Virus record (IMG/VR): IMGVR_UViG_3300044842_000203 | Span: 47,567-111,566 of that record | Source: a virus | Taxonomy: Duplodnaviria; Caudoviricetes | Reading direction: 5' to 3' (one strand) | DNA length: 64,000 nt | In this document: piece by piece, positions 1 to 56,673 of the stretch | Numbering within the stretch: the first letter of the stretch is position 1 | Layout of the letters: the number at the start of each line of letters is the position of its first letter | The notes under the pieces: model-generated | Told to the model about the DNA's origin: nothing | Database searches by the model: none | Seen by the model: the letters and a program-made list of their open reading frames with translations, nothing else | Translations under genes and position numbers: made by a program

Positions 1-1
1 G

Positions 2-1399
2 GCCACCATCCGCCACACCACCACACCAAAGAAGCCCAAGACATTCAAACAGTGGGCGGGGCAGCGCGGATCGAAGTGGATGGGCCGGCATTGGTCGACT
101 CGCGCGGTGCGCGGCCTGTACCGCTTTGGTCGGCGCGAAGCTGACGGTATCCGGCGTCGCCGCGCGGACACTAAAGCGAACCGGCCGCACAGCATGCCGT
201 CGCGGCGAGCGATGCTCGCGCGGAAGATGGCCCGCGCTCGGGCGAAGGCGCGCACCGGGTTCCGCAAGATCGCGCTAGCTGATCAGCACACTCATTGCCT
301 CGGATGCGGGCAGAACTTCCGCAACATTCGCGGCTACAACGAGCACGCGTGCGCGCAGAACCACGGGACCAAAGCGAAGGCACCGGTGCCGAAGGTGCAG
401 TCACCGACCGCGCCAGCTGCCCCCAAACCGGCAGCGAAACCCAAGGTGAAGGCGTCTAAACCGGCGTCGAACGGGGGCACAGCTGCCGCTGCTGCGGGTG
501 GTGCTGCGCTCGGGGCAGCCATGGCGGCCGCCGCGAAAGGGAAGATCGACCACTCGAATCATCCTGCACAGCCAGCCGCGCCGGCCGCTGAGGAGAAGCC
601 CCCCATGGGGCCGATGGCCGCGAAGGCACACGCGCGGGCTCGCGGGCGCCAGTGGCGGCAAGAGAACAAGGCGCGGCGCAAGCAGGACATGAAGTGGCAC
701 GAGCGGGCGCGGGACCGCGCTGGGCGGGAGGCCGGCGCCGCGGTTGGCCGCAACGCCAAGTGCGTGCAGTGCGGTTGGAAGATCCGCCCAGGTGAGCAGC
801 ACGACTGCCAGGGCCGCCGATCCAACGCCAAGACGGGCCCCGATCCGGCCGCCGGGGCGCAGTCACCGCCGGCCGCGCCCGCCAAAGCACCAGCACCAGC
901 CAAGACGCCGGCACCAGCACCCAGCAAACCAGTAGCAGTACCCAAACCCGCCAACGGTGGCGGAGCGACAGGAAAGGGGGCGGCGATGACCGCACCGGCA
1001 ACAACCAATGGCAGTGCCCCAACCCCATCAGGCAACAGCAGTGGCGGCCCGGGGCCGGGCCTCGCGGCGGCGCTCGTGCAGGCGTGGGGCGCGTGGTGTC
1101 AGGACATTCCCGAGTTCCACGACGACATGATCGTGAAAATGAATGCGACTCGGGAAGCCATGGGGCAAATCGCCACCATGCTCCAGGACCACGCCGCGCA
1201 GTTGGTGGCCGCGGAGTTCCATCCCGAGTGCGTCACTCCACTGCTGTCCGCATCCGCCCAAACGTTGGAAACCGCGAACCATTTCACCAACGTGCTCATG
1301 GCCATCGAGCGGGTTTACGGACCACTGCTAAACCACTACCGCTCCGGCATTCCTGACCCTGGTGAGAAGTACCTGTCCAGCGGTCGCAAAGGAAGTTGA
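2..1399 (+). CDS. 5'-partial Pro/Ala/Lys-rich protein with Cys/His clusters and helical C-terminal domain; transfer-module accessory (TraA-like position)
   Basis: Frame open from window edge; directly upstream of TraB-like gene; possible internal start at 986. Confidence 0.6.
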   Translation, partial: ATIRHTTTPKKPKTFKQWAGQRGSKWMGRHWSTRAVRGLYRFGRREADGIRRRRADTKANRPHSMPSRRAMLARKMARARAKARTGFRKIALADQHTHCLGCGQNFRNIRGYNEHACAQNHGTKAKAPVPKVQSPTAPAAPKPAAKPKVKASKPASNGGTAAAAAGGAALGAAMAAAAKGKIDHSNHPAQPAAPAAEEKPPMGPMAAKAHARARGRQWRQENKARRKQDMKWHERARDRAGREAGAAVGRNAKCVQCGWKIRPGEQHDCQGRRSNAKTGPDPAAGAQSPPAAPAKAPAPAKTPAPAPSKPVAVPKPANGGGATGKGAAMTAPATTNGSAPTPSGNSSGGPGPGLAAALVQAWGAWCQDIPEFHDDMIVKMNATREAMGQIATMLQDHAAQLVAAEFHPECVTPLLSASAQTLETANHFTNVLMAIERVYGPLLNHYRSGIPDPGEKYLSSGRKGS

Positions 1400-1435
1400 C
1401 GATAAACAGAGTCGGGGGAGAAGGGACTCATCAAT

Positions 1436-3601
1436 ATGTCTAGGCGCGTCGGCTACAGCCCGGCGATCACATCCGAGCAGACTTTCGGCGACTGGTACAA
1501 CGAGCGTCGTTTGTTGCTGAACCCTTGGGTTGCGGGTGCGGTCGTCGGGGCGGTCGGCGTGGGCAACTCGCTCATGTTCCCCTTGTGGCCGCACACCATT
1601 CTGTGGGTAGCAGTCGCTTCCCTACTGCTGCTCATTTGGACAGTGACGCTTACCCACGCACCGCAGCGTTTGTTCTACCGGATATTCATCGCCGTGGGGG
1701 CGGCGTGGATGTTCCTTCTGCAAACGCACTGGGCGGCCGAGCATTGGCGGGCCTTCGTCGTCGGATGGTTCATCGCCACCTCATTGGGATGGATCGGCTA
1801 TTGGACTGATCAACGGGAGCGGTACAAGGTACGGGTCCAGGCCGAGCACGACAGTTGGCCTGGTTTGGCGTCCATGCTGGGCATCCCGAAAGCGTGGATG
1901 TCACAAAAGGTGACCACGGCCACCGGATGGACCCAACGCCTGTCGTGGCCACAAGGCACCTACACCCTCTCCCAGATCAAAGGCATGCAGGAACGCCTAG
2001 AGGGCGCGCTGAATGTGCCCGCGGGGCAGCTACGACTCAAGCCCGTGCGCGACGACGACGACAACATCAACCCCAACGCCATCGAATTGGAGGCCAACAC
2101 GAACTCCCCCCTGCGCAAACAGCCACTGCGATTCGACGCACCCACCATGCGCTCGATCTGCGACCAGATGTACGTGGGTAACTACGAGAACCACGAACTG
2201 CTGAACGTTCACTGGTGGCACCCCGAGTACGGCGGTATCCACACGCTGGCCGCGGGCGCCACCCGTTCCGGCAAGAGTGGTTTGTACCGGCTGATGCTGG
2301 GCGAGACCGCACCGTGCGACGACGTGGTGCGCCTCGGCATCGACGCTAAGGGTGGCATGGCACTGCGGCCGTGGGCGCCGCTGTTCGAGTGGCTGGTGTG
2401 TGGCCGCTCGGGCCCGGCAGTCGCGGAAACGATCGCGATGCTGGAGTGGCTAGACGGGGTTATCGACTACCGCTCCACGTACGCGGCGGAGCGCGGCTGG
2501 GATGTGTGGAAGGTCAGCCGCCGCCACCCACTGATCATCCTTTACATCGACGAGGCCAAAGAGGTGCTGGGCCTCAAGGTCGACAAGTTCCACGCGCTGA
2601 GCCTGGTGGAAAAGATCGGCACCATGGGCGCGGGGGTCGGCGTGCTGCTGTGCGCCGCCACCCAGTATCCGACGATTGAGGCCATCGGATCCAGCCAGAT
2701 CCAGGCGAACATTTTGCGCCGGTTCTGTTTCCGCGTGGAGCGCACCAACCACCAGCACGTGATCCTGCCCGACGCCACGGGTATCGACGCGACGTTCCCG
2801 GACAAGCCGATCGGGCCGGCGGGGGCGGGCTGGTGCTTCTTCTCGGACATGGGTTCGATGAAGCCGATTCCGTTGCGGGTGCGGGATCTCAAGCCGGAGC
2901 AGGTGTACGAGATTGTCGATTCGTACTACCACGTGCGCTGCCCGGTGGATGTGGGCACGGCGACACAGCCGGTGCGTCGAGAGGCCTTCGAGGCGCGTAG
3001 GCGGTGGACGATGCGTGATCTTCACCGGCCGGAGTCCTACGGCGATTTGGACGCTGGCGAGTGGTCGGACGAGGCCGACGAGATGGGCGCACGGGACGAC
3101 GACACCGTGCCTGTGCCCACCCAGCAGAACGTGACTGAAAACGTGACTCAGGGCGTGACTGAGACCGTGACTAACAGCGTGACTGAAAGCGTGACTAACG
3201 GAAAGGAGCAGGTCGTGACTAGTACAGGAGATCCGACCACGGTCATCATCGACGGGCAGGAAATCACCGGCGTGCGGGTTCCACTGCGGGACCTCGTGCA
3301 TCCGCGCAACGCAGCGGATGCGGCGGCATTGCGTCAGGCCCAGGAGGCGTTCGCGGCGCAGCAGGCCGAGTGGCCGACGGAGATGGCCGACAAGGCGTTC
3401 TGGTTGACGTTGCAGACGGCAGGCGACGCCGGGGTAACCGCGGCGACGTTGATGGCCGCGTGCCACCGCAAGGCGTCGTGGGTGCACGAGCGGATGCACT
3501 CAGCCCGGATGTCCAAGCGGGTGGTCGAGGTGGAAGGTAAGAAGTCTTACTACAAGTTGGCTCCGGGTATGCCAATCCCCGAGCTTGCTAACGCTGTGTA
3601 G
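1436..3601 (+). CDS. traB: TraB-like FtsK/SpoIIIE DNA translocase
   Basis: N-terminal TM helices, Walker A AGATRSGKS, Walker B IILYIDEA, ATQYP motif, C-terminal winged helix as in actinomycete plasmid TraB. Confidence 0.8.
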   Translation: MSRRVGYSPAITSEQTFGDWYNERRLLLNPWVAGAVVGAVGVGNSLMFPLWPHTILWVAVASLLLLIWTVTLTHAPQRLFYRIFIAVGAAWMFLLQTHWAAEHWRAFVVGWFIATSLGWIGYWTDQRERYKVRVQAEHDSWPGLASMLGIPKAWMSQKVTTATGWTQRLSWPQGTYTLSQIKGMQERLEGALNVPAGQLRLKPVRDDDDNINPNAIELEANTNSPLRKQPLRFDAPTMRSICDQMYVGNYENHELLNVHWWHPEYGGIHTLAAGATRSGKSGLYRLMLGETAPCDDVVRLGIDAKGGMALRPWAPLFEWLVCGRSGPAVAETIAMLEWLDGVIDYRSTYAAERGWDVWKVSRRHPLIILYIDEAKEVLGLKVDKFHALSLVEKIGTMGAGVGVLLCAATQYPTIEAIGSSQIQANILRRFCFRVERTNHQHVILPDATGIDATFPDKPIGPAGAGWCFFSDMGSMKPIPLRVRDLKPEQVYEIVDSYYHVRCPVDVGTATQPVRREAFEARRRWTMRDLHRPESYGDLDAGEWSDEADEMGARDDDTVPVPTQQNVTENVTQGVTETVTNSVTESVTNGKEQVVTSTGDPTTVIIDGQEITGVRVPLRDLVHPRNAADAAALRQAQEAFAAQQAEWPTEMADKAFWLTLQTAGDAGVTAATLMAACHRKASWVHERMHSARMSKRVVEVEGKKSYYKLAPGMPIPELANAV
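3130..3220 (+). repeat. CGTGACT array, 7 copies, 12-bp period
   Basis: GTGACT at 3131,3143,3155,3167,3179,3191,3215. Confidence 0.9.
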
Positions 3602-3609
3602 CGGAGGGT

Positions 3610-3722
3610 TCTGGAGTCCAGAGGTCTCCGGAAGCCTCCGGAGAGTCGGAAAACGCGAGGCCACTCTAGGAAATCTGGAAAATCAGTCCGGAACCCTCCG
3701 GAGGTCTCCGGAAACCTCCGGG
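3610..3722. repeat. TCCGGA array with 10-bp period (clt-like)
   Basis: TCCGGA at 3627,3637,3687,3697,3707; variants at 3617,3717; 21-nt direct repeat 3621-3641/3701-3721. Confidence 0.8.
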
Positions 3723-3751
3723 CCGTCACGAACAGGAAGTGGTGACTACAG

Positions 3752-4072
3752 ATGGTGACGATGTGGCTCTTACAGCAGCCACCTCCCGAGCACACACACA
3801 GCAGCACTGCCGGGTGGGCGTTCCTGATCCTCACCGGGGTGCTGTGGGTGGCCTACAAGTGCATCAAGGCCCAAATCAAGCCGATCAACCGCTGCGGCGA
3901 CTGCCCCAAACCTGACGCCGAGGGCAACCGCAAACGCTGCCGCACATGCGGCGACAAACCCGAGATCCTCAACCGCTGGGCGTACTGGCAGATGCGGGCC
4001 GGCATTCGCGTGCCCCGCGCCGAACGCCTGCCGCACATCACACATCCACGGGCGGTGCCCAAGGATTGGTAG
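3752..4072 (+). CDS. Membrane-anchored Zn-finger protein
   Basis: One TM helix, CGDC...CRTC. Confidence 0.7.
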   Translation: MVTMWLLQQPPPEHTHSSTAGWAFLILTGVLWVAYKCIKAQIKPINRCGDCPKPDAEGNRKRCRTCGDKPEILNRWAYWQMRAGIRVPRAERLPHITHPRAVPKDW

Positions 4073-4098
4073 ACGCGAGATTCCGGTTCCCGCAACAC

Positions 4099-4137
4099 GA
4101 CTGAGCCCCCGGCAAGGACGACGCCGGGGGCTCAGTC
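4099..4137. terminator. Hairpin between convergent genes
   Basis: Perfect 15-bp stem GACTGAGCCCCCGGC/GCCGGGGGCTCAGTC. Confidence 0.75.
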
Positions 4138-4222
4138 ACATTCTCAGTCACGCTCGCGGGGGCGGCTCAGTCACGGGCAGAGTCACGTCGTCAGTCACGC
4201 TCCCCAGCTCAATCCAAGTCAC
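4134..4222 (-). repeat. GTGACT array on - strand, 6 copies, ~12-bp period
   Basis: AGTCAC at 4134,4146,4169,4181,4193,4217. Confidence 0.85.
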
Positions 4223-4441
4223 AGCCGGCGGCTCGATCACAGTCGCGACGGGACGCACGTAAGCAAGTTGCAGCGGCGTGTGGCCGGGCAGCGTGACCCA
4301 CTTGCGGAGGGCTTGTACGCCGGCCACGGTCTCGTTCTCAACGTCGGATACGAGGACCGCATCGAGCACGTCGGGGTCTAAGCCCACGGACCTCGCGGCC
4401 TCGTCATTGCGGGGTTCGATGATCACCCAGTAGTCAGCCAT
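4148..4441 (-). CDS. Hypothetical protein
   Basis: RBS GAGG, protein-like composition. Confidence 0.7.
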   Translation of the reverse strand: MADYWVIIEPRNDEAARSVGLDPDVLDAVLVSDVENETVAGVQALRKWVTLPGHTPLQLAYVRPVATVIEPPAVTWIELGSVTDDVTLPVTEPPPRA

Positions 4442-4451
4442 CGGGGGCCTC

Positions 4452-4727
4452 TCAGTGGTGCCAGTAGTAGACGGTGCCGGGCGGCGGGGTGTGCCCCCCG
4501 TAGCAGTGGTCCATCACGTAGTCGCGGGCCGCCTGGAGCTGCGCATCGGTCAGAGCGAAGGTGTCTTCGTAGTGGATGCCGATACCGCAGCCGTGGTCGT
4601 CGGACGCGGGTGGCCAGCCGGTGGTGACACCGGCCGGGAGTGGTTCGGGCAGTGGGTTGTGGTGGCCGGCGAGCCCGAAGCCGAGTAGGAGGGCGAGCAC
4701 AGCACCCACCACGGCGAGGATGCGCAT
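4452..4727 (-). CDS. Secreted/membrane hypothetical protein
   Basis: N-terminal hydrophobic segment. Confidence 0.65.
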   Translation of the reverse strand: MRILAVVGAVLALLLGFGLAGHHNPLPEPLPAGVTTGWPPASDDHGCGIGIHYEDTFALTDAQLQAARDYVMDHCYGGHTPPPGTVYYWHH

Positions 4728-4730
4728 GGG

Positions 4731-5360
4731 TCAGCTCTCCGCAGTGCGGGCGGCGTTGTCGAGCACGTCACCCAGGAAAGCGGCCAGGGCAGGGCGGATG
4801 TCGCCAGAGTCGACGTCGATGCCGCGGTGCGCCCAGTGGGAGAGGATGCCGGAGATGTCCATGGCGATGGTATCGAGGTCGCTGTCACTGATGCCACTAG
4901 GCAGTGCTGCGGGACGGTCTGCGGGGAAGACGTCGACCACCTCGAAATAGCGGCGAACAGCAGCATCGCCGTGATCTTCATCCATCCAGTTGAGCGCTTC
5001 TACTCCTGCGTTAGGACCATCGAGCACTGCAACGATGCTGGTGTCTTCGCCGGGCCGTTCACAGAGCAAGACGTGCACTCTGCGTCGTCCCAGGGCGCGG
5101 CTGATGCAGGTGTCGAGGTCGTCGTCGGAGTTTTGGACGAGGTCGAGTAGGTCGCGGGCTTTGGCCTCGCCGAATAGGCGGGTGGCTTCGGTTTGGAAGG
5201 CGGCAGCCACGCCGTCGATAGCTTGCCCGACATTGCTGTTGCGGGGGATGTCGAAGGGGTTGGGTACTGCGTCGCCGAAGGCGCGCATGGCGGAGTCGAG
5301 GGCGCGCAGGGGGATGAGTTCGGCGGGGTGGACGGGCTGATTGCGGGGGTCGAGTGCCAC
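4731..5360 (-). CDS. Hypothetical protein
   Basis: GTG start after GAGGAG, downstream of motif promoter. Confidence 0.7.
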   Translation of the reverse strand: MALDPRNQPVHPAELIPLRALDSAMRAFGDAVPNPFDIPRNSNVGQAIDGVAAAFQTEATRLFGEAKARDLLDLVQNSDDDLDTCISRALGRRRVHVLLCERPGEDTSIVAVLDGPNAGVEALNWMDEDHGDAAVRRYFEVVDVFPADRPAALPSGISDSDLDTIAMDISGILSHWAHRGIDVDSGDIRPALAAFLGDVLDNAARTAES

Positions 5361-5381
5361 GGGATTCTCCTCACAGGCTTG

Positions 5382-5401
5382 CCGGAACAACCCCCACCAT
5401 A
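5382..5401 (-). promoter_or_regulatory. Motif promoter TATGGT-N7-GTTCCGG
   Basis: -10 hexamer plus heptamer, upstream of RBS. Confidence 0.75.
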
Positions 5402-5427
5402 CCATCACTGTGTGGCTGCGCAACTCG

Positions 5428-5976
5428 TTAACCCAGTTGGACGCGTCGCAGATCCTCGAACCCCGAGCGGTACAGCTTGTGCGCCTGATTCATCACCCAT
5501 TCCCACCGATTGAGCAACAGGCGCCGCGCGTTGGTTTGCGCGTCCTCCCAGGTGATGCGTTCACCGAAGCGGCGCACCACGCGAGCGAACATTTCCCGAT
5601 CTGAACACGCGCCGTCGTAGGAATACTCCAGCGACCGGGCGCGGTCGTAGCCGGGTTTGGTTTTCTCCACCCATAATGCTTCGCCGGTTTGTCCCGCGGC
5701 GCATGCCAGTAGCCAGTGCACGACCTTTTCGTCTTTCACGTCAATCATCTTGACGAAAAGATCTTCCTCAATGTCGATGCTAGTAACCCCCGACACTGAC
5801 ATGTCCTGTTTGCCGCCCACATGCAGCATCACCGACATATCCGTCATCGGCAAACCGCCCAGGGCGGCCACCGTCATGTGGGATGCCTCGTGAACAGATG
5901 CGGCGGTCACCAGGTGGCGGGCCACCTCGTCACCGAAGTAGGAATGGCTCGGCAAATCAGCGTGGTAGCGGCTCAT
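5428..5976 (-). CDS. Stand-alone M41 (FtsH-like) Zn-metallopeptidase domain
   Basis: HEASH, AAGQTGE, DGACSD motifs. Confidence 0.65.
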   Translation of the reverse strand: MSRYHADLPSHSYFGDEVARHLVTAASVHEASHMTVAALGGLPMTDMSVMLHVGGKQDMSVSGVTSIDIEEDLFVKMIDVKDEKVVHWLLACAAGQTGEALWVEKTKPGYDRARSLEYSYDGACSDREMFARVVRRFGERITWEDAQTNARRLLLNRWEWVMNQAHKLYRSGFEDLRRVQLG

Positions 5977-5982
5977 GATGAA

Positions 5983-6117
5983 TCACTGTTCCTGTCCATT
6001 ACTGCCAGATTCGGTGGTGGACCGATCATCGGCGCCAGGGTCGTCGACGGGTGCCCTTACATCGCCATTAAGTGAAGGCTCGGGGAGGCGTTCAAGGTCA
6101 TCGTCAGGGCTGCTCAC
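5983..6117 (-). CDS. 44-aa acidic peptide
   Basis: GTG after AGGAG, fills intergenic gap. Confidence 0.45.
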   Translation of the reverse strand: MSSPDDDLERLPEPSLNGDVRAPVDDPGADDRSTTESGSNGQEQ

Positions 6118-6124
6118 AGTGCTC

Positions 6125-6502
6125 CTAGGTGAGGGTTTTGCGGTGCCATGTCATGCCGTGCGCGTCCAGCCACTCGCCGAGTTCGGCGGTGAGCTGATCG
6201 TGCAGCTCAACAGCGGTCTCCCCGTTGGGGCCGCGGTAGAACGAACCCGTGTCCCAGCACACCTCAGCTCGGCGAGCGCGGTTTTGCGAATCGACCAGGT
6301 ACAGCAGAATCGCCAAATGCCCCTTGCCGCTAGTGGAGGCTTCCCGATTCTGCGGGGTGAGCAGGGTGACTTCCGGGGCGATGTCGCTGGGCGCCTCGTA
6401 CCACTCGATGTTCTCGGGAATGTCGAGCTGGCGAGCACAGAACTCGCGCAGCTCGCGGAGGTGGGTGGGGTTGGCGATGTAGATGGTGGTGTCGAGGGTC
6501 AT
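6125..6502 (-). CDS. Hypothetical phage protein
   Basis: ATGA-coupled to upstream gene. Confidence 0.7.
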   Translation of the reverse strand: MTLDTTIYIANPTHLRELREFCARQLDIPENIEWYEAPSDIAPEVTLLTPQNREASTSGKGHLAILLYLVDSQNRARRAEVCWDTGSFYRGPNGETAVELHDQLTAELGEWLDAHGMTWHRKTLT

Positions 6503-6933
6503 CCGGCGTCTCCGGGCATGAGGGTGAGCAGGTCGCAGTCAATGTCGAGATCAGATCCGAGGGCGCGGCATTCCTTGCAGCGCAGGTCGTAGCAGGCGCG
6601 GGGGTCGCGGCAGGGGGGTACGAGACTGTAGGTCCACTGGAGGTAGTCGTAGACCTGCTCGTTATCCAGCAGTAGTCGCATAGATCGCTGGCCAGGTGGA
6701 TGGAGGTCGAGCACGAACGTGGCGCCCATACGCTGCGCGGACAGGTCGAGGTTGTTGACGTAGCGCAGTTGGGCGTCGGCGAAGGTGGCGCGATCAATGA
6801 TCCAGCGCACCCAGCGGTCGTGCTGGTAGATGGCCAGGTGGATGGCCATGGGGAACAGCTCGGCGTTGTAGCAGAGTTTGATGGGCCGCTCGCAGCATGC
6901 GGTGGTGTCGAGGGCGAGTAGTGGTTTGCACAT
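6499..6933 (-). CDS. SsgA-like protein with C-terminal Cys4 motif
   Basis: LCYNAELFPMAIHL, WIIDRATF, YLQWTYSLVPP match SALP pattern. Confidence 0.65.
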   Translation of the reverse strand: MCKPLLALDTTACCERPIKLCYNAELFPMAIHLAIYQHDRWVRWIIDRATFADAQLRYVNNLDLSAQRMGATFVLDLHPPGQRSMRLLLDNEQVYDYLQWTYSLVPPCRDPRACYDLRCKECRALGSDLDIDCDLLTLMPGDAG

Positions 6934-6949
6934 GGGAGTCTCCTCAAGG

Positions 6950-6969
6950 CCGGAACATGGCTAAGGGTA
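6950..6969 (-). promoter_or_regulatory. Motif promoter TACCCT-N7-GTTCCGG
   Basis: Upstream of GAGGAG and ATG 6933. Confidence 0.75.
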
Positions 6970-6996
6970 TCACCACACGGGGCGGTGTTGGTGCGG

Positions 6997-7680
6997 CTAG
7001 CGGGTGGTCTTGCGCTGCGGGATGGGCAGGCCGAGGGTCGCCATGGCGGTGTGCCAGTTGATGGCTATTGCCCACTGCGCGGCGGCGAGGGTGACCTTGC
7101 GTTGGCACACGCCGTCGTGCAGCCAGCCCTCGATGTCGTCTTTGGTGTTGCGGTACGGGGGGTTGGCGTTGGGGATGTCGGAGACCTGCGGCCAGAAGTT
7201 GGTGACGTCATCGGAGCCGCCGAGCCATAGGGGCACGTCGTGGTCGAGTTCGGTCTTGGCGCGCTGGCTGGGGGGCACGCCGTAGGCGTGCATCGCCGCG
7301 GTTTTGAGCGCGTCGGTTTCGTCTTTGGGTGGGCGGATCGTTTGGGTCGACCAGGCGGGGTTGCAGATGGTTTGGTCGATGTTGTCTTGGGTGATGTCGG
7401 AGCGCACGGAGCCGGGGGTGCAGGCGCGCACCGGGAGACTGGGGTCGGCGCCGGTGGGTCGGACGCACAGGCTTGGGTAGGGCAGTCCGGTGACGTGGTT
7501 GCCGTTGGGGGTGATGGTGAGTACGCCGGGGTGGTCGTCGCGGTGTGCGGCGAGTTGGGCGTCGGTGGGTGGTGTGTTGATGCCGGCGTCGGGTGGTGTG
7601 GTGACGCGGAATGCGGGCGCCTGATTGGTACAGCCGGCGAGTAGAAGTGTGCAGCAGATGGTTAGTAGTGCGCGGCGCAT
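6997..7680 (-). CDS. Lipoprotein with HNH-like nuclease domain
   Basis: Lipobox LLAGC; ELDHDVPLWLGGSDDVTNFWPQ. Confidence 0.7.
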   Translation of the reverse strand: MRRALLTICCTLLLAGCTNQAPAFRVTTPPDAGINTPPTDAQLAAHRDDHPGVLTITPNGNHVTGLPYPSLCVRPTGADPSLPVRACTPGSVRSDITQDNIDQTICNPAWSTQTIRPPKDETDALKTAAMHAYGVPPSQRAKTELDHDVPLWLGGSDDVTNFWPQVSDIPNANPPYRNTKDDIEGWLHDGVCQRKVTLAAAQWAIAINWHTAMATLGLPIPQRKTTR

Positions 7681-7835
7681 GGTTGTCCCCCAGTTTGTTC
7701 GGCTCGCCAGGCGGCGAGCATGCGGATCCACAGTGGCGCATCATCGGCGGGGCGGTGGTTGCCCGCGCCGATGATGTCTAGCTCGAAATCGTCGATGGTG
7801 ATGGCGAGGTCATCGGCTGCGGTCGCGGTGTTCAC
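7662..7835 (-). CDS. 57-aa protein resembling RsdA sigma-binding region
   Basis: GTG after GGAGG; DDFELDIIGAG...LAAWRAE. Confidence 0.45.
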   Translation of the reverse strand: MNTATAADDLAITIDDFELDIIGAGNHRPADDAPLWIRMLAAWRAEQTGGQPCAAHY

Positions 7836-7992
7836 AGTGCCTCCGGTAGAGGTGACCGAGGGCGGCGATGACGAGCAGGCCGAGCAGGAAGTAGCCGCCG
7901 ATGCAGACGAGTGCGATGGCGAGCACGGTGAGGCTGAGTGTTGCGACGCCATCGGCGGTTTTGCTGGCGGCCTTGCTGGTGAAGTAGATCAT
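7810..7992 (-). CDS. Small membrane protein
   Basis: Hydrophobic stretch, RBS GAGGG. Confidence 0.6.
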   Translation of the reverse strand: MIYFTSKAASKTADGVATLSLTVLAIALVCIGGYFLLGLLVIAALGHLYRRHCEHRDRSR

Positions 7993-8040
7993 CGTTGGTG
8001 GTCCCTCGGTTGCGGGTTGGTTACACCCGGTGTATCGCGG

Positions 8041-47067: not shown

Positions 47068-48781
47068 ATGGGAGAACTCACGCCCGATACAGTGCACTTG
47101 TTAGCTAGCGGACAAATCGAGCGTATTTGGGGTCCTCCCGGTTAGCACCGGGAAATCCACCAAGCTCAAAGAGCGCATCAAAGACGCGGTGGCCGAACAC
47201 GGGGCCGACGCCGTAGCGGTCACCTCGTTCACCGTTACCGCCGCGCGCTCCATCGCCCAGATGGATCTATCCCTACCCGATCACGCCGTCGGCACACTGC
47301 ACTCACTGGCCTACCGGGCCATCGGGCACCCCGACGTCGCACTCGACAAAAAGGTCATCGCCGACTGGAACAAGCGCGTCGGCTTCGAGTGGCGCATCAC
47401 CCCCGACTCCCGCCGGGGCGCCCCCGACGCCGACCAGGGCGGCCGGGACTCCGGCGATGCCCTGCTGGCCGCCTACGACATGCTGCGATCTCAACTGACC
47501 CCACCGGAGGCGATGCCTGCCGATGTGCGCCGTTTCGCCGCAGCCTGGGATGGGTGGAAACGCGAGGCCGGTGGCTGTGTGGATTACACAGACATGATCT
47601 CTATGGCGTTGCAGCAGGCCCTGGAGGGGCAGAAGGCGCCCGGCGCCCCAAAGGTGCTGATCTCCGACGAGGCGCAGGATATGACCCCGCTGGAGACGGC
47701 GCTGCTGCTGGCGTGGCGGGCGCCGCACACCATCTTCGCCCTCGACGACGACCAGGCCATCAATGAGTGGCGCGGTGGAGACGCTGGCCCGATCCTGCTC
47801 ATGGAAGACAGTGACGACTGCGCTATCACCGATACACCACTTGAGCAGTCGTGGCGGATTCCCGCCGCGGTGCACATGATCGCCCAAACGTGGATTGAGC
47901 AGTGCTCATTTCGCCGCGACAAGGAGTACCGGCCGCGGGACTACGACGGTCGCGCCTACGCGGTGCGCTACCCGATCGAGCATCAGGCCACCGCGGAGGC
48001 CATCGCCAACGATGTGCACGCTGGGCGGTCCGTGATGGCCATCGCTTCGTGCGAGTACATGCTGCGTGTCCTGATCTCGAACCTGCGCCGACTCGGGGTG
48101 CCTTATGCCAACCGCTACCGGCCCGCGGAGGGGCGCTGGAATCCGTTGTACTCAGCGACGGGCATGACCACGGCGGAGCGCCTGTACCGCTACCTGGTGC
48201 TTGATGAGCGCGCCCTGGGGGCTGATTCGCGGCTGTGGACCGGCGATGACGTGCGCGCATGGCTGGAGTTGGTGGGGGTGAAAGAGGCCCGGCTCGCGAA
48301 GGGCGCGAAAGCGAAAGCGAAGAACTTCCCCGCCGGGGAGCTGGACGTGGCGCAGGTTATTGGCATGTTCGCCGACGAGGACGCTTTTGGGGACGCCACT
48401 GAACCGTCCCTGAATTGGCTACTGAACGCGGCGAAGGGCATCAAGGGCATGGTGGGCACGGCGACCGAGCCGGGCAAGCTCGACTATCCGGCCCGGATCG
48501 CTACCCAGTTTGGTCCGGCTGCGCTGGTCGACGAGCCACTGTGCACGGTGGGGACAATTCATAGCGTGAAAGGCGCGGAGGCTGATGTTGTATATCTCAG
48601 CCCGAGCTTGTCGCCGGCCGGGCATTCTGAGTGGATGCGTAATCGGCGGGGCCGGGATGCGACGCGCCGACTCATGTATGTGGGCTTGACCAGGGCGAAG
48701 CAGACGTGCGTGGTGCTGTCTTCGACGGAGGCGCACGTGCGCCCGAGTGAGTTGTGCCCGCCAGAAATGAGTGTGCGATGA
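47068..48781 (+). CDS. UvrD/Rep-like SF1A helicase with Walker A split by 4 nt (recoded or pseudogene)
   Basis: GPPG-TAG-C-TGKST; intact DEAQD, DDDQAI, LEQSWR, TIHSVKGAE, YVGLTRA. Confidence 0.85.
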
Positions 48782-53601: not shown

Positions 53602-56600
53602 CTATTGCAGAGCCAGCTCGCCCGTCGCCGCGGGCACCAATTCCGCATAGCCGCGCGCCACTGACTCGACATCGACTTCCGCGTCAGCGGCGTCTTCGAG
53701 CACGACTGTTGCCATAGCCACGGTGGCGATGTCCACTACAGCGGCGGCCACCGTCAGCAGGCTCACGCTGGTCGCGACGGGCGGCCACGTGAACGTGGCC
53801 TTCCCGATGACGCGCAACGCTTCAGCGAGCACACCAGCCAGCTGAACCTGCGCTGCTACCGCGGGACCACTCAGCGGCGAAACCGCCGCGATGTGAGTAG
53901 TTGGGACTCTTGACTGCACGCTCGGTGCGAATGCTGGCGCTACTACTTGAGTAGTGGCCGCGCCCGCGTGCGCCACGGATTGTCCGGTGCTGCTCACAGC
54001 CGGCGCGGTGTTCGCCGCACCAGCTGTGCTCACTCGGGGGGTCACCACGGGCGCCGGATCGAATGCCTGCGTAGTGGTACTGGCCCCACCTGCCGCGACG
54101 TGCACATCGGCTCGCGCATCCGCGGCGGCGCTGACTGCGGCGGGTCGCGCCGATGTGGCGATGATGTTGCTAGTGGCGGGCACGGTGGTGTCAGCTGTGC
54201 CCGCGCCAGGGTGACCGGACACGAGAGGTGCCGCGTTCCCAGCGGCGACGCCGGCCGCGCCTAGTCCTACCGGTGTGCTCACCGTTGTTCGCGCCACCCC
54301 CGCCCCGGCCGATGCGCCAGCCGCGGGTGGTGTGCTCACCAATGCCACTCCGGCGTCGAGCGCGGCGATGGTGACTCCGGCGGTTTCGGCCTGCGCGAAG
54401 GTGACGGTCTCATCGGAGGCAAGCGCGTCGATCCCCTGCGCGTTGACGTTCGCGACCCCCGGCTGCGCGCTGATCAAGGTGGCAGCAGCGGGCACCGCAA
54501 CGGCGCTAGCCGCCTCGATCGGCCGGGCTCCTACTATCGGCGTGGCCGGCAGCGCGGTGGCCGTTCCGGCCGCTGTAGAGGCCGTGGAGGCCAGTGCGAC
54601 CGCGACCGCTGGCGCACCAGCCGTGACCGCGGCGGGGCCCGCTGGGGCCGCTACAGCCGGTGCCTGGGCGCCTGCGGCGCCACTGGCCCCCGCGGTGGAC
54701 AGCCCGGCGGCGAGGGTGGCGGTCAGATCGCCCGCGGCGGCGTTAACTCCTGTTAACCCCGCTGGTGCGGCCACTGAAGGGGCAGCGGCCACGGTGGCCG
54801 TGACCGAGGCCGTATTGGTTTGGGTGGTGGCGCTGCCGCTGGCCATGTTGTTGCCCGCGGCGCTGACACCGGAGGTGGATGCTGGGACCGCCACACTCGC
54901 GCTCGACGCCGTGGCCGCGCTGGCGCCACTGCCCCCGGCCGGCGCGGCTACAGATGGCAGGGGGGTGGGTGCCGAGGTGGAGACAGCGGCGGTGCTGGTG
55001 GTCGCTGTAACGGTGGTGGTGGGGGTGTTGGCGCTGGCGCTGGCCCCGGTGGTGGGCGCTCCGACGGCAACATCGCTGCGCGCGGTGGGGCTGGCCGCGG
55101 TCGCGGCGGCGGTGGGGATCGCCGTGGTACCGGTGGCGGTCGGGTTGTTAGCTGCGGCGCTGGTTTGGCTGGCGGTCGCGGTGGGCGCGACACTGGGTGC
55201 CGCCGCGTTCGCGGCGGCAGTGATTGTGCTGCTGGCCGCGTTCGCGGCGACGGTTTTGCTCGCCGCTGGGCTGGTCGCCGTGGCGGTGGCCGTGGTGATT
55301 GAGCTGCTGACCTGACCCGTCGGTGATTGTGCGGCTGCACTACTGCCCGCGGTGGGCGCACCCGATGCGACACTCCGCGCGGGCGCGTACGCCGTGGCTG
55401 TGGCCGCCGGGGCGCCCGCCGGGGCGCTGACACTGCTGCTGGGCGCCTGCCCGGCCGCGTTCGCGCTACCAGCCCCCAGCGGCGCGGTGAGCGCGGTGGT
55501 GGGGGTCTGGGCGGCAGCGCCTACCCCAGCTGCCGTCGCAACCGAGGCCGTGGTCGCGCCGGGCAGCTGCGCTGCCGCGCTGACGACGCTAACCGCGGCA
55601 ACCGGGGCCACGCCAGTCGAGGGACTGGGCGCGCTGACCGATGCGCCGGCCACTCCGGCGACCACGGTCACGCTCGTGCTGGGGGCCTGCGCCGCGACTG
55701 TGCCCGAGCTGCCCCCGGCTACCGGGGTGACACTGGGCGCCGGGCTGGGTGCGGTGGCAACAGCATCCGCGTCGACAGGTGTCGCGGTGATCGCTGAGGT
55801 GGCATTCCCCGCGGTGGCGGTGACGTCTGCGTCGGTCGCGGTGGGACTGGCGGAGACCGAGACGATGACGCTGACGGAGCTACGCGGTGTCTGGTAGTGG
55901 CGGGCGCGCCGATTCGGGCCTTTGCCGGGATGCCACGAGGTGGACTGGTAGCCCTTGACGGGGGCCGGAATGACCTCCATCGCCAAAGCGACGGTGATGG
56001 AAGTGGTGGTCCCCCACGTGCCCCCGAGCGTGATCGCCTGCCCAGGGTTTTTCGTGTAGGAATTAGCGTAAATGTCGATGATGGTGACGCCATCGGTGGG
56101 CCCAGAGGCGTCTGTCCAGTCCAGCGTGGTATTAGCGTTCGCCGTGAAGGTCGTGTTGACGTTGGGGTTATCAACAATCGCCCAAATCCACGAACCCATT
56201 CGGTTCGGGGTGATGCTGAATGTACCGTCGTTGCTTTGTCCGCCGGTCGCTTTGATGGCGATAGCGGCGGGTGTTTGATCCCAGTGCGCCCCGGTGAAAA
56301 TCAACGGGTCGAGGACTCGGCCACCGGAGCTAGTTCCCCATCCGCTGAAAGTGATGGTGACGGTGATCGAGCCCGGTGATTGATCGAAGTAGTGGTACCA
56401 GCCGGCGACACCGCCACCCGCTGTCGACGCGGAAGGATTGGCGACAACACCGTTGGTGGTTCCAGGTAGCGGCGTCCAGGTGTTGCCCCCGGTGTCGCTG
56501 ATGGCCATACCCGCTACACCGGAGGCGTTCGTCCAGCCCTGCGCAGCGAAAATGACCACCAGCGAATGCGCTGGCGGGGTGAACGTCGAGGTGCAGGTGG

Positions 56601-56673
56601 AGGGAGTGCCCTGCCCCGTGGCGACCGTTGATGCCGGGGTTGACCCGTCGACGAGCACCGCGGGATACGGCAC
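53602..56673 (-). CDS. Large Ala/Thr/Ser-rich putative virion protein
   Basis: Beta-rich N-terminal domain, long low-complexity stalk, structural block. Confidence 0.7.
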   Translation of the reverse strand: MPYPAVLVDGSTPASTVATGQGTPSTCTSTFTPPAHSLVVIFAAQGWTNASGVAGMAISDTGGNTWTPLPGTTNGVVANPSASTAGGGVAGWYHYFDQSPGSITVTITFSGWGTSSGGRVLDPLIFTGAHWDQTPAAIAIKATGGQSNDGTFSITPNRMGSWIWAIVDNPNVNTTFTANANTTLDWTDASGPTDGVTIIDIYANSYTKNPGQAITLGGTWGTTTSITVALAMEVIPAPVKGYQSTSWHPGKGPNRRARHYQTPRSSVSVIVSVSASPTATDADVTATAGNATSAITATPVDADAVATAPSPAPSVTPVAGGSSGTVAAQAPSTSVTVVAGVAGASVSAPSPSTGVAPVAAVSVVSAAAQLPGATTASVATAAGVGAAAQTPTTALTAPLGAGSANAAGQAPSSSVSAPAGAPAATATAYAPARSVASGAPTAGSSAAAQSPTGQVSSSITTATATATSPAASKTVAANAASSTITAAANAAAPSVAPTATASQTSAAANNPTATGTTAIPTAAATAASPTARSDVAVGAPTTGASASANTPTTTVTATTSTAAVSTSAPTPLPSVAAPAGGSGASAATASSASVAVPASTSGVSAAGNNMASGSATTQTNTASVTATVAAAPSVAAPAGLTGVNAAAGDLTATLAAGLSTAGASGAAGAQAPAVAAPAGPAAVTAGAPAVAVALASTASTAAGTATALPATPIVGARPIEAASAVAVPAAATLISAQPGVANVNAQGIDALASDETVTFAQAETAGVTIAALDAGVALVSTPPAAGASAGAGVARTTVSTPVGLGAAGVAAGNAAPLVSGHPGAGTADTTVPATSNIIATSARPAAVSAAADARADVHVAAGGASTTTQAFDPAPVVTPRVSTAGAANTAPAVSSTGQSVAHAGAATTQVVAPAFAPSVQSRVPTTHIAAVSPLSGPAVAAQVQLAGVLAEALRVIGKATFTWPPVATSVSLLTVAAAVVDIATVAMATVVLEDAADAEVDVESVARGYAELVPAATGELALQ

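Follow-up and report, generated by a model that had tools for sequence, protein, structure and literature searches.

A probable TraB-type DNA translocase module with candidate clt repeat arrays in a lineage of contractile-tailed soil phages

We analyzed a 64,000-nucleotide stretch (here called the window) that corresponds to positions 47567 to 111566 of one 111,566-bp viral record, IMGVR_UViG_3300044842_000203, and in particular a gene near its start that encodes a TraB-like double-stranded DNA (dsDNA) translocase, together with the operon that holds it and the short-repeat arrays in and beside that operon. The record is linear in IMG/VR and 92% complete by CheckV, and by its gene content it is the genome of an uncultured contractile-tailed phage from soil. 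Our main finding is that a TraB-type module with cognate cis sites is very probably native to this phage. A more ambitious reading, in which the module (window 1-4441 plus ∼2 kb before the window) is a DNA-transfer system of the kil-kor type found on Streptomyces plasmids, stable and vertically inherited in 110- to 120-kb actinomycete myoviruses, is one for which we see the case as evenly balanced.

The translocase gene (1436-3601, plus strand) encodes a 721-amino-acid protein composed of a transmembrane (TM) segment, an FtsK/HerA-type motor, a repeat-bearing linker and a winged helix. The membrane segment (amino acids 27-123; 1514-1804) has 2 to 4 predicted TM helices, and the structure model, alongside which hydropathy was also run, places the predicted N-terminal helices at residues 30-47, 52-69, 75-95 and 104-148. 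The ATPase core that extends from Walker A to Walker B (2252-2557) is built on invariant alignment columns, with GATRSGKSG at residues 273-281 and LIILYIDEA at residues 366-374. Across the 18 homologues of our family alignment (A1), four motifs are invariant: Walker A (GxTRSGKSG), Walker B (LIILYVDEA), ATQYPT and the C-terminal CHR..W. The protein matches PHROG 1358 (FtsK/SpoIIIE-like; 9.5e-15) and, in a PDB profile search, FtsK (1e-4). The full-length AlphaFold model shows four N-terminal helices and the motor at a predicted local distance difference test (pLDDT) score of 58, and Foldseek with the motor returned the pCW3 coupling protein TcpA and FtsK on dsDNA as top matches (8e-9). The C-terminal segment (3377-3565) contains a putative recognition helix (CHRKASWVHERMHSAR), and the C-terminal 115 residues were modeled at pLDDT 79 with an H-H-H-H-beta-beta layout of helices and a beta hairpin, for which the best structural matches were winged-helix domains at probability 1.0 and weak E-values (4e-3 to 0.1). 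One metagenomic homologue (P0001, 1158 amino acids) carries an intein of ∼447 residues, with Hom_end and LAGLIDADG Pfam matches, directly after the P-loop lysine K280 (window 2273-2278). Inteins usually occupy conserved sites in important proteins, and the insertion is therefore a typical mark of a conserved phage gene that bears an active site.

An exhaustive HMMER search returned 778 relatives, 48 of them below 1e-30, and a word-indexed search delimited the tight family of full-length homologues, at 45-62% identity, that makes up alignment A1. Aligned by hhalign, the A1 profile covers an NCBI-annotated plasmid TraB almost from end to end (22-697 on 20-661 of 666; probability 98.3%, E 2.5e-14), including the membrane segment and the C-terminal DNA-binding domain, and it matches a second plasmid TraB-like protein at E 2e-16; with Escherichia coli FtsK, 109 columns were aligned. 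The NCBIfam family plasmid_TraB ranks first, before EccC and FtsK, both for family member P0002 (1.8e-17) and, end to end, for a sister clade (1e-22 to 3e-34). In a quick maximum-likelihood search over 634 columns, the window family forms a clade with a Shimodaira-Hasegawa-like approximate likelihood ratio test (SH-aLRT) value of 100, nested among metagenomic clades. A larger clade (SH-aLRT 95) unites it with these and with plasmid TraB-type proteins, represented by two pairs, and leaves out gp10 of the Streptomyces phage Gilgamesh and its plasmid twin, two short Tra proteins like those of actinomycete integrative and conjugative elements (AICEs), and E. coli FtsK. We give this placement moderate weight because the outgroup branches are long and the search was quick. 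These comparisons support the assignment of the 721-amino-acid protein to the TraB type and not to the ordinary chromosomal FtsK proteins.

A repeat array (3106-3221, plus strand) lies in the coding sequence of the linker that joins motor and winged helix; it contains seven copies of CGTGACT, at 3130-3196 and 3214, with successive spacings of 12, 12, 12, 12, 12 and 24 bp over 3130-3221, and an eighth, degenerate copy (CGTGCCT) at 3106. The array is written in the linker codons, spells NVTENVTQGVTETVTNSVTESVTNG and lies ∼400 bp before the traB stop codon. At position 3110 the window has a C, while a near-identical contig (L004) and contigs from four independent soil runs have an A, which gives CGTGACT and an eighth in-phase copy; it is the copy in the window strain that is degenerate. 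About 1 kb downstream, a mirrored array of six copies of (C)GTGACT on the minus strand (4134-4223; spacing 12/23/12/12/24 bp) runs from a hairpin into the 3' end of the gene at 4148-4441. This hairpin (4099-4137), which has a perfect 15-bp stem (-45.6 kcal/mol, z -5.6) and lies between convergent genes, is probably a bidirectional terminator, and its arms already hold the repeat core (GACTGAG / CTCAGTC). Over the whole genome GTGACT occurs 23 times per strand, as composition predicts, and the 7 and 6 copies gathered here in two 85-bp stretches are the sole clusters in 111.5 kb.

Several features indicate that these repeats are maintained as DNA. The threonine codon ACT accounts for 7 of the 10 threonine codons in the array, compared with 2 of 40 in the rest of the gene and 2 of 67 in the phage DnaE gene. 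In three related contigs (L007-L009), the linker carries GGGGA[AC]T (GGGGAMT) at ∼12-bp spacing and in two different codon phases, and two of these (L008 and L009) have mirrored A[GT]TCCCC (AKTCCCC) copies past the terminator of the last operon gene. Rare ACT codons, mixed codon phases and mirrored copies together show that it is the DNA and not the peptide that is under selection. An initial annotation of the window, made from sequence alone, had noted that the neighboring gene at 4148-4441 (minus strand, 97 amino acids) shares the traB repeat. Its last codons do overlap the mirrored array, but the array also lies in the terminator hairpin and persists where the gene is missing: the gene is not conserved in L005-L009, and L005 and L006 nonetheless have GTGACT in traB and AGTCAC past the terminator. 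The mirrored array is thus a DNA feature and not a property of that gene. The linker peptides of the 18 homologues fall into two classes, VT repeats and G[TN] repeats, in agreement with the protein tree. The putative recognition helix differs along the same lines, being W.HE.M..AR in most proteins of the VT/GTGACT class and W.QN.R..AQ in most of the G[TN]/GGGGAMT class. We regard the CGTGACT array as a candidate clt (a transfer locus that acts in cis), that is, a TraB recognition site.

A further set of repeats occupies the intergenic region downstream of traB (3617-3721), where three plus four TCCGGA boxes at 10-bp spacing lie upstream of the last operon gene and flank a conserved TAGG(G/A)A -10-like element (TTAGGGATAC-like). 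Relatives have CNCCAG or TCCAR boxes in which CC dinucleotides are invariant every 10 columns, and this is a second candidate protein-binding array. Read as TCCGGAA, the 10-bp boxes contain CCGGAAC; the boxes of relatives differ. Two other roles were considered for the repeats. Binding of the adjacent GntR-type regulator (described below) to the GTGACT arrays was rejected, as that protein has its own putative palindromic operators in the divergent promoter. For a role of the arrays as an origin of replication we found nothing specific, and no initiator-type protein is adjacent. Elsewhere, on metagenome contig Ga0105036_100010 (L013, 7800-7900), a 29%-identical TraB-like gene is immediately followed by TGTGACA / GTGTCAC / GTGACAC repeats, a candidate for another clt-like site that resembles the TGACACC repeats of pWTY27.

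The traB gene belongs to a plus-strand island of four genes between minus-strand blocks, as defined by the open reading frame (ORF) list and a gene call based on GC content at third codon positions (GC3), and the operon begins 1.1 kb upstream of the window start. Divergent from it lies a gene for a 250-amino-acid regulator with GntR and UTRA domain matches (genome 45613-46365, minus strand), whose best matches are GntR proteins of Streptomyces plasmids at 37-39% identity; it is followed by an HTH_31-DUF5753 regulator gene and, 3 kb further on, by the portal gene. The 86-bp divergent promoter region (genome 46366-46451; window -1200 to -1115) contains two 20-bp palindromes of the form CCGTAG[GA]TGTAC[GA]CCTACGG (CCGTAGGTGTACGCCTACGG and CCGTAGATGTACACCTACGG) with an extended -10 element (TGCTACGAT) between them, and relatives have different GTAC-centered palindromes at the same position between the GntR gene and the operon. 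We read the palindromes as putative GntR operators. A scan for sigma-70 consensus promoters returned 0 sites.

The first gene of the operon (genome 46452-47501, plus strand) encodes a 349-amino-acid protein in which four membrane helices are combined with a coiled coil rich in Ala, Gln and Glu and with a conserved, helix-turn-helix-like domain at the C terminus. Its build resembles that of SpdB proteins, and a language-model search gave a weak lead to SpdB_N / HTH_SpdB_C clusters (0.82-0.83). An SpdB identity was considered for the accessory proteins and was not accepted. Comparison by hhalign and Pfam detected no Spd/DUF2637 homology. The second gene (window -64 to 1399, plus strand; start at genome 47502) has a TTG start 64 nucleotides before the window that abuts the stop codon of the first, leaving 466 3' codons inside the window. 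Its product, a basic, Pro/Ala-rich protein of 487 amino acids, has two C-x2-C...H-x-C zinc knuckles and a conserved C-terminal domain; it matched nothing in Pfam, PHROG or NCBIfam and has orthologues at the same place in six related contigs (L004-L009). Downstream of traB, the last gene (3752-4072, plus strand) encodes a 106-amino-acid membrane protein with one TM helix and a four-cysteine zinc ribbon, the CxxC...CxxC motif of which is kept in relatives. For both the 487- and the 106-amino-acid proteins, the zinc-binding motifs are conserved and our searches found no known relatives. Direct Pfam scans of all seven local proteins gave no match at E≤0.01. The initial annotation thus proved sound for this region in describing an accessory gene at 2-1399 (whose true start lies outside the window), a protein with TM, FtsK and winged-helix parts, repeat arrays and a membrane zinc-finger gene.

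By gene order, the module has the layout of the traR-traB gene pair of Streptomyces plasmids, which the literature names a kil-kor pair (PMC4447253). Three Streptomyces plasmids (L011, L012 and L021) and phage ZL12 all have a GntR gene facing away from an operon in which a Tra gene is included or comes last. Full-length alignment with plasmid TraB, the SH-aLRT 95 clade, the divergent GntR gene with its putative operators and the clt-like arrays all bear out the earlier suggestion of a TraB-type module, and the phylogeny that had been named as a check on it sets the family beside plasmid TraB and separates it from both E. coli FtsK and the Gilgamesh-type phage ATPases.

The arrangement is not peculiar to one assembly. 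Six viral contigs (L004-L009) share the order portal, GntR, 349-amino-acid protein, 487-amino-acid protein, traB and zinc-ribbon gene. One of these, L004, is an independent 13.5-kb contig that spans the join between module and phage and has a TraB 99% identical to that of the window. The others (L005-L009) are more distant, at 67-69% identity for the portal, 46-55% for TraB and 27-43% for the accessory proteins and GntR, and two of the relatives' records are complete genomes of 120-121 kb with direct terminal repeats. In four other soil runs, short Logan contigs extend across the junctions between the module's genes; no single one covers the entire stretch, and several of them stop at the tandem array. 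GC content is 64-66% over the whole genome, module region included, and GC3 of the module matches that of the rest of the genome.

The carrier has a complete virion gene set. The record encodes a tail sheath, baseplate wedge, tape measure, major head protein and a giant protease-fused gene product, a portal and a MuF-like protein, the large terminase (TerL) and an endolysin, together with a DnaE-type polymerase, helicases and a primase-polymerase, and the initial annotation was right to place TerL, endolysin and tail genes on the same contig as the module. The nearest cultured relatives are distant, with 32% identity to Streptomyces phage Gilgamesh in the portal and 50% identity to Streptomyces phages in DnaE. 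A megablast search of window positions 1-8000 against our phage collection gave no match, and no cultured representative of the window-family TraB was found in that collection. In a part of the window remote from the module (53602-56673, minus strand), a 1023-amino-acid ORF occupies a stretch of 74% GC, well over the genome mean, and had no PHROG match.

The element had also been called a phage-plasmid, a label that we do not accept. A six-frame search of this genome and three relatives (G000-G003) found no Phage_integrase, Resolvase, ParB_N or ParA-type AAA_31 domain, although Rep families were not included, and direct terminal repeats are present in the two relatives that are complete. A pattern-limited search of 185,579 species genomes with the family profile returned no relative; a profile scan of metagenome contigs found three distant loci, and PLSDB holds just distant plasmid proteins at ≤29% identity. 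The negative searches for tyrosine integrase, serine recombinase, ParA and ParB genes and for relatives in species genomes, together with the phage's own replication enzymes, speak against the label. We note separately that several circular Streptomyces "plasmids" of 125-132 kb (PLSDB CP108533.1, NZ_CP122459.1, NZ_CP108441.1, NZ_CP070374.1 and others; L016) encode a phage portal 32-36% identical to that of the phage studied here, and that at least two of them also encode a TraB-like protein of the Gilgamesh gp10 type. Judging from these genes, they are Gilgamesh-like phages living as plasmids in sequenced strains.

We hypothesize that the winged helix would dock TraB hexamers on the CGTGACT arrays, which would serve as clt, with the 10-bp TCCGGA boxes as a second possible docking or operator site. 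The motor would pump phage dsDNA through the septal or cell membrane, such that the replicating phage genome could pass to neighboring hyphal compartments or hyphae without virions, and the GntR repressor would time the transfer step. Virion-independent movement of phage dsDNA between hyphal compartments or cells appears to be the most likely function, with a probability that we place slightly short of even. The fuller scenario, in which a strictly lytic myovirus pushes its replicating genome over cross-walls before lysis by means of a GntR-switched, plasmid-derived TraB/clt system, is possible and on the whole doubtful.

A number of observations weigh against a transfer function and against the TraB assignment that it presupposes. 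The window protein itself has no NCBIfam TraB match (E≤1), and its match to Pfam FtsK_SpoIIIE reaches just E 0.15. All family members score far below the 800-bit cutoff of the NCBIfam plasmid_TraB equivalog model NF041214, with 63 bits for P0002 and 77-118 bits for the sister clade, while the TraB-like protein of plasmid L012 scores 419 bits; because the model is narrow, the miss excludes an equivalog and not membership in the wider TraB family. Confidence in the full-length structure model is low (pLDDT 58). For the 349-amino-acid family, hhalign against two plasmid DUF2637 proteins was negative and the Pfam scan gave no match. The co-variation of array and protein amounts essentially to one motif switch between two clades, and it is therefore suggestive and not statistical. 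The mycelial host is assumed from the best matches to Streptomyces phages and plasmids, and any benefit of transfer would depend on timing, because a lytic phage kills the donor compartment.

Other explanations must be set beside transfer. The first is segregation in the manner of SpoIIIE, in which the motor would load on oriented guide arrays and pump phage DNA across closing sporulation or vegetative septa; the genome would then be trapped in spores or daughter compartments as a carrier state, with dispersal in time and not from cell to cell. FtsK/SpoIIIE-like genes are common in phages of sporulating Streptomyces and Bacillus, the motor fold matches dsDNA-bound FtsK, and the two arrays converge in the way that FtsK-orienting polar sequences (KOPS) converge around dif. 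However, full-length collinearity and the tree favor TraB over FtsK, conjugative modules are typified by a GntR kil-kor layout and by membrane partner genes such as these, and there are just two local arrays, without a genome-wide polar distribution. We consider this explanation unlikely.

Less probable again is a role in maintenance, which would give the phage an unrecognized extrachromosomal prophage or pseudolysogenic state; in no other sense would the term phage-plasmid apply to the element. The arrays would here be centromere- or iteron-like, and the motor and its partners would partition or resolve genomes. The distant Gilgamesh-type elements, which are 125- to 132-kb circular plasmids with a TraB-like gene in sequenced Streptomyces, offer a precedent; boxes phased at 10 bp around a promoter recall the arrangement of centromeres or iterons, and two repressor-like genes (GntR and HTH_31-DUF5753) adjoin the module. 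Against these stand the negative searches for ParA, ParB, integrase and resolvase in the four related genomes, the direct terminal repeats of the complete relatives, the failure of the pattern-limited search to find a homologue in species genomes, and the possession of a DnaE, primase and helicases of the phage's own, typical of lytic replication.

It is very unlikely that the module acts in conflict, either by mobilizing or expelling host plasmids, AICEs or chromosomal DNA with clt-like sites or by excluding superinfecting phages at the membrane. TraB proteins can mobilize chromosomal clt-like sequences (PMC3429521), and PHROG places phage FtsK-like genes under "moron / host takeover," but the phage itself carries the cognate arrays, which co-vary with the protein that it encodes and so point to self-recognition, and the module is core to the lineage and not a variable moron. 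Finally, that the module is an assembly chimera, or an AICE or plasmid inserted in one phage genome, is scarcely credible: it does form a plus-strand island between minus-strand blocks, but the same order beside the portal in the 13.5-kb contig and four further lineages (two on complete records), a composition in GC and GC3 that matches the genome, the soil-run contigs that bridge the junctions and the lack of any integrase or att-like flank in our searches exclude a chimeric join, which the initial annotation had raised as a concern, or a recent AICE insertion.

Should the hypothesis of virion-independent transfer hold, adsorption and burst would not be the sole determinants of how phages spread in mycelial bacteria, and gene flow in soil Streptomyces, like plaque formation and resistance based on receptors, would be read differently. 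A bacterial virus would then have a virion-free form of cell-to-cell movement, functionally like that provided by the movement proteins of plant viruses. The switch from GTGACT to GGGGAMT between two clades is in itself a ready-made specificity swap for the TraB winged helix. To our knowledge, nobody has shown the function of the FtsK-like genes that are listed in many actinophages; papers on cultured Streptomyces phages list such genes and mention a possible role in replication or development.

The closest comparison is with the TraB-clt-TraR(-Spd) modules of Streptomyces plasmids and AICEs (pSVH1, pWTY27, pJV1 and pIJ101), which likewise have one FtsK-like motor, anchored in the membrane and ending in a winged helix, together with small membrane partner genes, a divergent GntR repressor gene and arrays of 6- to 9-bp direct and inverted repeats at or over the 3' part of tra. 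In known clt arrays, repeats of 5 to 9 bp, both direct and inverted, lie at the 3' end of tra or overlap it, and it is helix alpha-3 in the winged helix of TraB that reads them (PMC3583192; PMC4447253). That of pJV1 has nine 9-bp repeats and that of pSVH1 has 8-bp repeats read by TraB helix alpha-3 (PMC3583192; PMC4447253), while the clt of pWTY27 has four TGACACC repeats and inverted repeats over 16 bp of traA and adjoining DNA (PMC3583192). TraA of pWTY27 has two TM helices, at a position similar to that of the membrane segment in the window protein (PMC3583192). The module described here differs in its carrier, a 111-kb contractile-tailed phage in which Int and Par were not found, in having the main array in linker codons with a mirrored copy 1 kb away, and in accessory proteins that are not detectably Spd homologues.

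Among phages, pZL12 / phage ZL12 (NC_013420.1) has the same GntR gene divergent from an operon that ends in an FtsK/SpoIIIE-like Tra gene. According to the later papers (PMC3583192, PMC4487206) that cite Zhong et al. 2010 (J Bacteriol 192:3747), pZL12 transfers conjugally via the tra gene and two of its neighbors, and a transfer-proficient Streptomyces phage therefore already exists. pZL12 differs in being a circular plasmid prophage that encodes ParA/ParB, neither of which was found in the present lineage, where the complete relatives carry terminal repeats; its Tra matches the window family marginally (hhalign probability 76%, E 2e-5) and in the motor domain only. For gp10 of Gilgamesh, the best NCBIfam family, again before EccC and FtsK, is likewise plasmid_TraB (8e-15) and a membrane protein gene comes next, but it forms a separate clade in the tree, can be aligned with the window family over 254 motor columns only and has no GntR gene annotated beside it.

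Chromosomal FtsK/SpoIIIE with KOPS and SpoIIIE recognition sequences (SRS) shares the RecA-type hexameric dsDNA pump, the winged-helix reader of short oriented words and the convergence of those words, but the phage has two local arrays instead of a genome-wide skew and no XerCD/dif context. Distant FtsK/SpoIIIE-like genes in our phage collection are frequent in Bacillus phages (34 of 52 matches); Bacillus species, like Streptomyces, sporulate. Set against these systems, what distinguishes the module is an apparently nontemperate myovirus as the carrier, an array in the pump's own linker codons with a mirrored partner, and a natural motif switch. A similar module is known from pZL12; in the present lineage, itself without signs of lysogeny, the plasmid-type context has been kept in full, with the repressor and its putative operators, the membrane partners, the TraB-like motor and the co-varying arrays.

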